Counted from the stretch's first letter, positions 22,214 to 24,463 are shown. The stretch: DNA of 35,878 nt from a virus (IMGVR_UViG_2684622775_000005), one strand, 5' to 3'. Notes: a model not told the origin generated them from the letters alone. A program made the numbers and translations.

Positions 22214-24463
22214 ATGAGCACAAAATTCAGAACCGTTATCACCACTGCCGGTGCAGCAAAGCTGGCAGCGGCAACCGCACCGGGAGGGCGGAAGGTCAAC
22301 ATTACCACGATGGCCGTCGGGGATGGCGGTGGTAAATTGCCTGTCCCGGATGCCGGACAGACCGGGCTTATCCATGAAGTCTGGCGACATGCGCTGAACA
22401 AAATCAGCCAGGACAAACGAAACAGTAATTATATTATCGCAGAGCTGGTTATTCCGCCGGAGGTGGGCGGTTTCTGGATGCGTGAGCTTGGCCTGTACGA
22501 TGATGCTGGAACGTTAATTGCTGTGGCGAACATGGCCGAAAGTTATAAGCCTGCCCTTGCCGAAGGCTCAGGGCGTTCGCAGACCTGCCGCATGGTCATC
22601 ATCGTCAGCAGTGTGGCCTCAGTGGCGCTGACCATTGACACCACAACGGTGATGGCGACGCAGGATTACGTTGATGACAAAATTGCAGAGCACGAACAGT
22701 CACGACGTCACCCGGACGCCTCGCTGACCGCAAAAGGTTTTACTCAGTTAAGCAGTGCGACCAACAGCACGTCTGAAACACTGGCCGCAACGCCGAAAGC
22801 GGTAAAGGCCGCTTATGATCTTGCTAACGGGAAATATACCGCGCAGGATGCCACCACAGCGCGAAAAGGCCTTGTCCAGCTCAGTAGCGCCACCAATAGC
22901 GATTCTGAAACGCTTGCGGCAACGCCAAAGGCGGTAAAGGCAGCATATGACCTCGCTAACGGGAAATATACCGCACAGGATGCCACCACCGCGCGAAAAG
23001 GTCTTGTCCAGCTAAGTAGCGCCACCAACAGCGATTCTGAAACGCTGGCCGCAACGCCAAAGGCGGTTAAGACAGCGTATGACCTTGCTAACGGGAAATA
23101 CACTGCACAGGATGCCACCACCGCGCGGAAAGGCCTTGTCCAGCTCAGTAGCGCCACCAACAGTGATTCTGAAACGCAGGCCGCAACACCAAAAGCGGTG
23201 AAGTCTGCCTATGACAATGCTGAAAAACGTCTTCAGAAAGATCAGAACGGTGCGGATATTCCTGATAAAGGACGCTTCCTGAGTAACATTAATGTTTACA
23301 GCAAAGGTGAAGTGGATAAGAAAAAGGGAATGCGAAAGTATTCGTTTGCAGCCCCTGCAAATGTCGTTGCCGGGAAGTGGTATCCCGTTATCTTTCGCCG
23401 TGCTGCCAGCCTTTCAGGAGAAATGGCATCCCGCGTCGTTATTTCCACTGGTTGTTATAACAGCGATTATGTAATGAATAACTGCGAGTTTAATGGCATG
23501 GTTATGCCCGGAGGCTGGACTGATCGTGGTTCATATGCGGCAGGTTATTTCTGGACGTATCAGACTAATGAGCGTTCAATCCATTCCATTGTTACAAGCC
23601 TGAAAGATGATGATGTATGTAGTGTTTTTTATGTTGAAGCCAGAGCTTTCCCTGTGCAAATTCTTGCAGAGGAAGGGCTAACGGTTATTGTTCCGACAGA
23701 GGATTATGTCGTCGGTCAAACGACATATAAGTGGGGGGCAACTAATCCTGCTACAGAAAGCACGAACGCACAGGCTATTCTGGATTTTAAAAATGGGCGC
23801 GGTTATTACTGCTCACATCCATTTATTTCCAGCCTTTCGGGAAATGCTGCAACAGCAACGAAGTTAGCGAACGCAAGAAATATTAATGGTGTCAGATTTG
23901 ATGGCTCTGCTGATATAAATATTAATACACTGGTATCCAGAAACCGTGTTACTGCATTAGGTGGGAGCGTAAAGGGGACACCAGGTATTCAGATGTATGA
24001 GGCATACAACAATGGCTACCCAACAGCCTATGGTAATGTGCTTCATCTCACTGGCGTAACCGCAGTAGGAGAGGGTGAGTTACTTATTGGCTGGAGTGGA
24101 ACCAGCGGTGCTCATGCTCCGGCATATATTCGCTCCCGACGAGATACCACAGATGCTAACTGGTCTGGATGGGCGCAACTATATACAACTGCTCATAAAC
24201 CCTCAGCGGGAGATGTTGGTGCATACACCAAAGCTGAATCAGATTCACGTTATGTGAGAGACATGCGGCTGGGCGGTGCATCTACATATAAACCAGCAAA
24301 TAATGGTACTACATGGACGCATCAGGCTCCGCCAGGTTGCGTATATACCGGCATTATTGTTCAGGATACCGGCTCAAACTCTGCCGATAACATTGGTGGC
24401 GTATATTACAGACCGGTGCAGAAATACATTAACGGGACATGGTATAACGTGGCGCAGGTATAA
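22214..24463 (+). CDS. H: tail fibre protein H (749 aa) with internal tandem repeats
   Basis: Position and order; conserved N-terminal region; four tandem 44-aa repeats; longer than the recalled 669 aa of P2 H. Confidence 0.9.
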   Translation: MSTKFRTVITTAGAAKLAAATAPGGRKVNITTMAVGDGGGKLPVPDAGQTGLIHEVWRHALNKISQDKRNSNYIIAELVIPPEVGGFWMRELGLYDDAGTLIAVANMAESYKPALAEGSGRSQTCRMVIIVSSVASVALTIDTTTVMATQDYVDDKIAEHEQSRRHPDASLTAKGFTQLSSATNSTSETLAATPKAVKAAYDLANGKYTAQDATTARKGLVQLSSATNSDSETLAATPKAVKAAYDLANGKYTAQDATTARKGLVQLSSATNSDSETLAATPKAVKTAYDLANGKYTAQDATTARKGLVQLSSATNSDSETQAATPKAVKSAYDNAEKRLQKDQNGADIPDKGRFLSNINVYSKGEVDKKKGMRKYSFAAPANVVAGKWYPVIFRRAASLSGEMASRVVISTGCYNSDYVMNNCEFNGMVMPGGWTDRGSYAAGYFWTYQTNERSIHSIVTSLKDDDVCSVFYVEARAFPVQILAEEGLTVIVPTEDYVVGQTTYKWGATNPATESTNAQAILDFKNGRGYYCSHPFISSLSGNAATATKLANARNINGVRFDGSADININTLVSRNRVTALGGSVKGTPGIQMYEAYNNGYPTAYGNVLHLTGVTAVGEGELLIGWSGTSGAHAPAYIRSRRDTTDANWSGWAQLYTTAHKPSAGDVGAYTKAESDSRYVRDMRLGGASTYKPANNGTTWTHQAPPGCVYTGIIVQDTGSNSADNIGGVYYRPVQKYINGTWYNVAQV
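22742..23269 (+). repeat. four tandem copies of a 132-bp (44-aa) in-frame repeat inside H
   Basis: Motif GTCCAGCTCAGTAGCGCCACC recurs at about 22874, 23006 and 23138, with a more divergent first copy at 22742; copies differ at many synonymous positions; encoded unit KGLVQLSSATNSDSETLAATPKAVKAAYDLANGKYTAQDATTAR. Confidence 0.85.

Follow-up and report, generated by a model that had tools for sequence, protein, structure and literature searches.

Introduction

The tail fibre protein gpH of phage P2 is a homotrimer that forms a fibre of ~54 nm attached to gpI of the baseplate, and its chain consists of an N-terminal adaptor and then "two repeat domains (RBPseg-D19)", which are discrete domains of the shaft (bioRxiv 10.64898/2026.09.14.750843). 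According to the RBPseg atlas, D19 is also found in T4 gp34-like fibres, resembling the T4 short fibre (PMC12143355). At the level of sequence families, PF03406 (Phage_fiber_2, "phage tail fibre repeat") was first noticed in lambda Stf as the "Pf2" domain, was also recognized in the collagen-like fibres of EHEC prophages, and is a repeat of tail fibres across many phage types (PMC3368898). When PDB entries were searched for this repeat by sequence, only Mu S (5yvq, 9ki1) and an S/S' chimera (8ju3) were found to contain it.

In this study, we analyzed a stretch of DNA of 35,878 nucleotides (IMGVR_UViG_2684622775_000005), hereafter referred to as the window. The window is a P2-like E. coli prophage adjoining yegQ, in which integrase, replication gene A, portal, terminase, capsid, lysis, W, J, I, H, G, sheath, tape measure, and D are arranged in the same order as in P2. 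Our subject is the tandem repeat carried by its tail fibre gene H.

Results

Organization of gene H

Gene H was found to be an intact ORF of 749 aa on the plus strand (22214–24463), as supported by the ORF list, Pfam, the PHROG tail-fibre families, and the gene order W-J-I-H-G; all features of H described below lie on the same strand. It is located between the baseplate gene I and the tail fibre assembly gene G (24467–24994, plus strand; PF02413 Caudo_TAP, E = 7e-34). The product begins with a baseplate-adaptor domain (aa 1–168, 22214–22717; PF12571, tail-collar fibre N-terminus, at aa 1–151, E = 3e-58), and this N-terminus, together with the J-I-H-G order in a P2-like late operon, identified the protein as a P2-type (Peduoviridae) gpH. 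In tblastn searches, H matched P2, Wphi, 186, and other Peduovirus records. The length of 749 aa had been set, in an earlier reading of the sequence alone, against 669 aa for P2 H, and the P2 gene was confirmed to be 2010 nt long and to encode 669 aa. The 80-aa excess is not simply the result of two added units (88 aa), since H and P2 H have non-homologous distal parts.

The repeat array of H sits between the PF12571 domain and the swappable distal part, and as a whole it spans 22718–23215 with a period of 132 bp, indel-free and in frame. Register analysis and a purpose-built unit HMM placed the unit starts at aa 169, 213, 257, and 301, giving unit 1 (22718–22849, aa 169–212), which is of the ASLTAKGFTQLSS... 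type, unit 2 (22850–22981, aa 213–256), unit 3 (22982–23113, aa 257–300), and a truncated unit 4 (23114–23215, aa 301–334). The HMM match of unit 4 covered model positions 1–36 only; this unit resembles the repeat over its first ~30–34 residues (to ~23215) and then runs into AYDNAEKRLQKDQNGADIPDK, and the array amounts to ~3.6–3.8 units, not a clean 4.0. Tandem Repeats Finder (TRF) reported an array at 22760–23215 with a period of 132, 3.5 copies, 88% matches, 0% indels, and a score of 695, and an independent seed-and-extend repeat search detected three 220-nt copies, 132 nt apart, starting at 22732.

The sequence-only reading had described four tandem, in-frame units at 22742–23269, and had named a recount of period and frame as the test of that description. 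Both the 132-bp periodicity and the frame were upheld by TRF, the repeat search, Pfam, and the unit HMM, as was the number of units. Since position 22742 lies 528 nt (176 codons) past the ATG, the units as originally drawn were indeed in frame, but the best register proved to start instead at 22718 (aa 169), and the final ~54 nt (23216–23269) belong to the junction and not to the repeat. A minus-strand ORF inside the array (22813–23160, 115 aa) was also considered as a gene and rejected, because its translation is itself periodic and thus marks it as a by-product of the repeat.

With respect to family membership, PF03406 matched four stretches of H (266.4 bits, E = 5.3e-81, against a gathering score of 22 bits), and each of the four units was matched by the model from end to end, with aa 170–210 corresponding to model positions 1–41 of 42. 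Like other members, the array is a repeat of ~40 residues inside a phage tail fibre protein, in this case with a period of exactly 44 aa, and no difference in kind from the family was apparent, H being an ordinary multi-copy case. The array of H is a known, catalogued repeat module in its usual place; the finding is real but ordinary, because PF03406 had already been catalogued and because close relatives in the sample have four copies more often than any other number.

Divergence among the units

As had been noticed beforehand, the units differ at many synonymous sites. Between units 2 and 3 there are 12 nucleotide differences (90.9% identity), 11 of which are synonymous (dS 0.43, dN/dS 0.02), and units 1 and 2, compared in the 22718 register, differ at 33 nt, affecting 16 codons synonymously and 7 non-synonymously. 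The values for unit 1 versus units 2 and 3 were 1.0–1.3 for dS and 0.11–0.14 for dN/dS, and those for all unit pairs in H ranged from 0.37 to 1.5 and from 0.02 to 0.15, respectively. Third codon positions hold 50 of the 76 differences among units 1–3, and unit 4 is 89–91% identical to units 2 and 3 over its first 81 nt. Overall, the units are 75–91% identical to one another (9–25% diverged), and the longest exact in-register run between them is 17–32 nt. The differences being mostly synonymous, the array is considered to be old and under purifying selection, and its initial description as "old and maintained" thus holds for this array.

The relationships between units of different alleles were also assessed. 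Units 2 and 3 of H share 99–100% identity with the units at the corresponding positions of another allele (L012) and 91% identity with each other; being closer to their counterparts than to each other, they indicate that the duplication is older than the split of those alleles. Unit 1 represents a distinct, ancient type that is orthologous across species and common to several genera at 88–99% identity. In H it shows 99% identity to its E. albertii counterpart, and comparisons with its P2 counterpart gave 99% and, at the nucleotide level, 95.5%. Units 2 to n group by lineage; Buttiauxella, with 3 to 4 units, and Scandinavium, with 2 to 3 units, are examples, and this grouping suggests that the second unit type expanded independently in such lineages.

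Copy number in relatives

The comparison of H copy number across P2-like phages, which had been proposed together with the original observation, was carried out on 80 IMG/VR loci whose N-terminal domain is 98–100% identical to that of the window and on 23 loci from other species. Counting with the unit HMM demonstrated that the number varies from 1 to 5 over about 104 loci (1 unit, n = 7; 2 units, n = 17; 3 units, n = 9; 4 units, n = 58; 5 units, n = 14), most of which are IMG/VR or draft assemblies in which near-identical neighbouring units could be assembly errors. The spacing of the units was exactly 44 aa in every locus counted. Four units, the form present in the window, are the commonest state in the loci sampled, and the two units of P2 are a minority state.

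Beyond this sample, 3–6 units were found in the top 120 protein-database relatives of H. A search with unit 2 against 1.84 billion representative proteins returned 2026 proteins at E ≤ 0.001, and in some other fibres of public protein collections the unit is repeated up to 12 times in close copies. Complete E. coli chromosomes encode intact, annotated H proteins with two units (WP_032286563.1, 681 aa), four units (WP_000104686.1, 749 aa), and five units (WP_041520905.1, 709 aa), and the H gene is 100% identical in the complete chromosome NZ_CP159698 and in an independent IMG/VR contig (L010).

Several records of H were irregular. Two H ORFs, L072 (322 aa) and L078 (289 aa), have a complete stop in or just past a three-unit array, and they represent either pseudogenes that have been truncated or mistakes in the assembly of the repeat. 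Many database homologues of H are labelled "partial", with contigs ending near the array. In addition, enterobacterial P2-type H with an N-terminal domain of 74–78% identity was encountered in a Firmicute-named assembly (L093, Vagococcus sp. WN89Y) and a Bacteroidete-named assembly (L098, Chryseobacterium sp. 18061), and these cases most likely reflect contamination or mislabelled contigs.

Signs of recombination among the units

When the alleles were grouped by their distal part at an identity of at least 90%, the C-terminal class of the window comprised ten 749-aa, four-unit loci and one 793-aa, five-unit locus (L029). The 749-aa and 793-aa alleles share their N- and C-terminal parts and are exactly one unit apart, and the DNA of L029 is 98.2% identical to that of the window in the N-terminal part and 98.6% identical in the distal part. 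Similarly, the 772-aa class contains one 816-aa, five-unit allele, and a 657-aa allele is paired with a 701-aa allele that has the same flanks and a different number of units. Units 3 and 4 of L029 differ by 1 nt, and the neighbouring units 2 and 3 of another allele (L047) are identical; an identity of at least 98% was observed in only 3 of 167 non-first adjacent unit pairs. Moreover, units 2 and 3 of the window can be told apart at 12 sites, and at these sites the internal units of other alleles display more than 20 different mosaics of the two states.

The array was also more diverse than its surroundings. Pairwise diversity within the 749-aa class was 0.044–0.072 in the units, as compared with values of 0.015 for the N-terminal domain and 0.010 for the distal part, so that the diversity of the array is 3–7 times that of the flanks, mostly at third positions; across all four-unit alleles, third-position diversity was 0.16 in the array versus 0.046 in the N-terminal domain. 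The one-unit differences between alleles, the near-identical neighbours, the mosaics, and the raised diversity together indicate that unequal crossing-over and gene conversion change the array. The earlier proposal that the repeats are substrates for slippage or recombination is hence supported by the comparison of the 749-aa and 793-aa alleles, by L029 and L047, and by the mosaic units. Meanwhile, copy number is mostly fixed inside the C-terminal classes (10/11, 19/20, and 10/10), which implies that such change is infrequent.

Nothing specific on copy-number polymorphism in P2-like H was found in the literature searched. The comparative picture obtained here, comprising 1–6 units, recent duplications of single units, mosaics, and raised synonymous diversity, was likewise not encountered in that literature; it is useful and unsurprising.

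Junction and distal part

Past unit 4, H continues through a junction (23216–23299, aa 335–362; NAEKRLQKDQNGADIPDKGRFLSNINVY), where similarity to most relatives ends, into the distal, exchangeable receptor-binding part (23300–24463). At least six different distal (C-terminal) classes were found attached to the same array type, as defined by signature residues. Most E. coli relatives are similar in DNA sequence only up to nt 1002–1059 of H, just past unit 4, and GC content drops from 0.51–0.58 to 0.43–0.48 after ~23300. The end of similarity and the drop in GC at the junction indicate that the array closes the constant, baseplate-proximal block of the fibre and that the exchangeable block begins there. 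The junction aligns with residues ~146–173 of Mu S and with the crossover-site region of 186 K, and in its residues 638–747 H has matches to the tip of Mu S' (8ju3) and to a short tail fibre (9cuy). Fibre segments have long been known to be shared among unrelated phages, and the DNA of the array, which has matches of 70–81% identity in P1 S, lambda stf, Stx-phage, and other fibre genes, fits this pattern. The distal parts, whose lengths were calculated by hand as the allele length minus 168 aa and minus 44 aa per unit, ranged from ~298 to 461 aa and showed no compensating trend with unit number.

An invertible segment of the Mu/P1 type (Gin/Cin) was considered for this locus and rejected. Within 22000–26200, the inverted repeats found were two weak ones (20–23 nt, 74–80% complementary), the 186 crossover-site sequence was absent from the H junction even with up to 8 mismatches allowed, and family searches gave no recombinase match in the ORFs between H and the sheath gene. 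As the locus has no recognisable crossover site, no significant, matching inverted repeats, and no invertase, H is not an invertible system.

Predicted structure and shaft length

An AlphaFold2 monomer of full-length H, predicted from a 30-sequence alignment, had a mean pLDDT of 36.6, with values below 50 in the array, and this low-confidence model contained a weak helix signal over TPKAVKAAYDLA. By analogy with the P2 fibre, each unit may correspond to one shaft module, and four units would then give a longer proximal shaft than the two units of P2. The idea that the repeat number could set the length of the fibre shaft, put forward with the original observation, is plausible on this basis. 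Scaling from 54 nm over 669 aa in P2 would give ~3–4 nm per unit, a rough guess obtained by arithmetic, not by measurement. The number of units may also affect adsorption or host range.

Prophage context

The Z142-2 prophage in the complete chromosome NZ_CP159698 (L001), which adjoins yegQ as the window does, is 100% identical to the window over H and G. None of the 40-mer anchors taken outside H–G, at seven positions from 5000 to 30000 of the window, was found in L001. The fibre module was either exchanged between these two P2-like prophages or shared by descent. RefSeq calls the identical H in L001 two pseudogene fragments (20001–20969 and 21780–21992; "incomplete; missing C-terminus"), the ORF being intact with 749 aa, and a 97%-identical H in NZ_CP025847 is annotated normally (WP_000104686.1).

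Other regions of the window were also inspected. On the minus strand, a 735-aa AAA_13 ATPase (6671–8878) is encoded between replication gene A and the portal gene, a slot occupied in P2 by the non-essential old gene. This ATPase showed an end-to-end match to the PADLOC candidate defence family PDC-S06 (E = 4e-254), and its C-terminal part is PrrC-like. A further minus-strand ORF of 389 aa (18634–19803), for which neither a Pfam nor a PADLOC match was obtained, lies ~100 nt past ORF 18078–18530, probably gene S, and overlaps ORF 19716–20423, probably gene V; because the counterpart genes (virion morphogenesis protein and baseplate protein V) are adjacent in L001, it looks like an inserted cargo gene. 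Two more ORFs occupy the interval from G to the sheath gene, one of 242 aa (25213–25941, plus strand) with no Pfam, PHROG, or PADLOC match and one of 256 aa with DUF5677 (26370–27140, minus strand). The stretch holding these two ORFs has a GC content of 0.33–0.39 and occupies the position of the Z/fun cargo gene of P2.

Discussion

Considering these results, we regard it as likely, with a probability of roughly 80%, that the array of H consists of PF03406 shaft modules that are kept by purifying selection and whose copy number has been shifted by unequal recombination and gene conversion. The repeat itself, its family, the pattern of selection, the copy-number polymorphism, and the footprints of recombination are directly supported by the comparisons described above. 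Mechanistically, the PF03406 units would form the proximal shaft of the trimeric P2-type fibre, between the baseplate adaptor and the exchangeable distal part, and each 44-residue unit would be a self-contained structural module maintained by purifying selection on the protein. Since every unit is exactly 132 bp long, gain or loss of a whole unit keeps the reading frame. Misaligned units could thus undergo unequal homologous recombination, leading to an occasional change in copy number, and gene conversion would shuffle synonymous variants among the units. These processes would account for the natural alleles with 1–6 units, of which the window has the commonest, four-unit form.

A different role is conceivable, and we hold it only tentatively: the array might mainly serve as a conserved patch of homology for swapping distal modules among unrelated phages, with copy number as a by-product. 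Such a role is not mutually exclusive with that of shaft modules, the two explanations being compatible with each other. It would agree with the joining of one array type to at least six C-terminal classes, with the end of similarity to most relatives and the GC drop right past unit 4, with the 70–81% identity of the array DNA to P1 S, lambda stf, Stx-phage, and other fibre genes, and with the Mu-like crossover site annotated just downstream in the 186 homologue. Conservation of the array, however, is at the level of protein and not of DNA, and the freely varying synonymous sites, with dS up to 1.5, are the opposite of what selection for DNA homology would produce. Moreover, the exchange boundary lies past the array, at the junction, so that one unit would suffice, and single-unit H genes do exist.

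We consider it doubtful that the number of units is an adaptive tuner of fibre length and that the synonymous divergence is itself selected, stabilising the array against RecA recombination. Under that proposal, the reach of the fibre would be matched either to how thick the surface layer of the host is or to the sheath ring where the retracted fibre docks, and synonymous divergence would bring exact homology below the length that RecA requires and thereby stabilise the array. The diversity of the array, which is 3–7 times that of the flanks and lies mainly at third positions, and the scarcity of near-identical neighbours (3/167) are compatible with such tuning, but plain gene conversion together with purifying selection explains the same data.

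It is highly improbable that the array acts as a contingency (phase-variable) locus, at which frequent slippage within a phage population would generate fibre-length variants in each lysate. All variants would be viable, as the units are in frame, and one-unit variants do occur between otherwise similar alleles. Contingency loci, however, are characterized by identical units of 1–9 nt that shift the frame or promoter spacing, whereas the units of H are 132 nt long, in frame, and 9–25% diverged, and their longest exact in-register runs (17–32 nt) lie around or under the minimum that efficient RecA recombination requires according to E. coli studies. The ten independent four-unit loci versus one five-unit locus in the class of the window, and the small number of non-first adjacent pairs with an identity of 98% or more (3 of 167), further argue against frequent slippage. 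That the repeat is an artefact of assembly or sequencing, for example through false expansion of the array, can practically be dismissed: repeats are hard for short-read assemblers and many homologues are "partial", with contigs ending near the array, but H is 100% identical in the complete chromosome NZ_CP159698 and in L010, nine further loci have the 749-aa, four-unit form, and the units are diverged enough for unambiguous assembly.

As a discovery, the interpretation of the array as shaft modules of recombination-shifted copy number is limited, given that the family is catalogued, that the units of P2 have already been described as shaft domains, and that the four-unit allele is present in public genomes. 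Its meaning lies in the observation that P2-type fibres tolerate 1–6 units downstream of an adaptor that is constant and ahead of a distal part that can be swapped, which suggests natural, frame-safe positions at which chimeric or length-varied P2 fibres could be engineered. It also provides a warning that H is often broken or mislabelled by short-read assembly and automatic annotation.

Comparison with described fibres

Arrays of many copies were seen in four fibre proteins, P0121–P0124, in which 6–12 copies are organized as 100-aa super-repeats, each composed of the 44-aa unit and a 56-aa unit with APSSHTHPWNQITGVP. P0121 and P0122 share the same 44-aa unit, at ~81% identity to the unit of H, but possess 11–12 copies of it; P0122 and P0123 have non-P2 N-terminal domains, and P0121 begins inside the array.

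At the other extreme, S (gp49) of phage Mu has one copy of the unit (residues 112–155), followed by the NGADIP.K junction as in H, and K of phage 186 (462 aa) has two copies of the 44-aa unit and the same junction motif as H. Mu S, 186 K, and H share the junction motif A.DNA..RL.KD.NGADIP.K..F..NI, and their C-terminal tip is related. In Mu, the junction is located at the boundary of the invertible G segment, which is accompanied by the Gin invertase, whereas H of the window has neither; likewise, 186 K has an annotated Mu-like crossover site at the homologous junction, and none is recognisable in H.

Finally, P2 gpH (NP_046775.1, 669 aa) corresponds to H in its gene position (V-W-J-I-H-G) and in its repeat family, and the N-terminal domain is common to the P2-type close relatives of H at 98–100% identity. 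The two fibres differ in that P2 gpH has two units, one full and one truncated, whereas H of the window has four, and in that unrelated distal parts follow the array, namely ...AVKTVMDETNKKAPLNSPALTG in P2 gpH and ...AVKSAYDNAEKRLQKDQNGADIPDK in H of the window.
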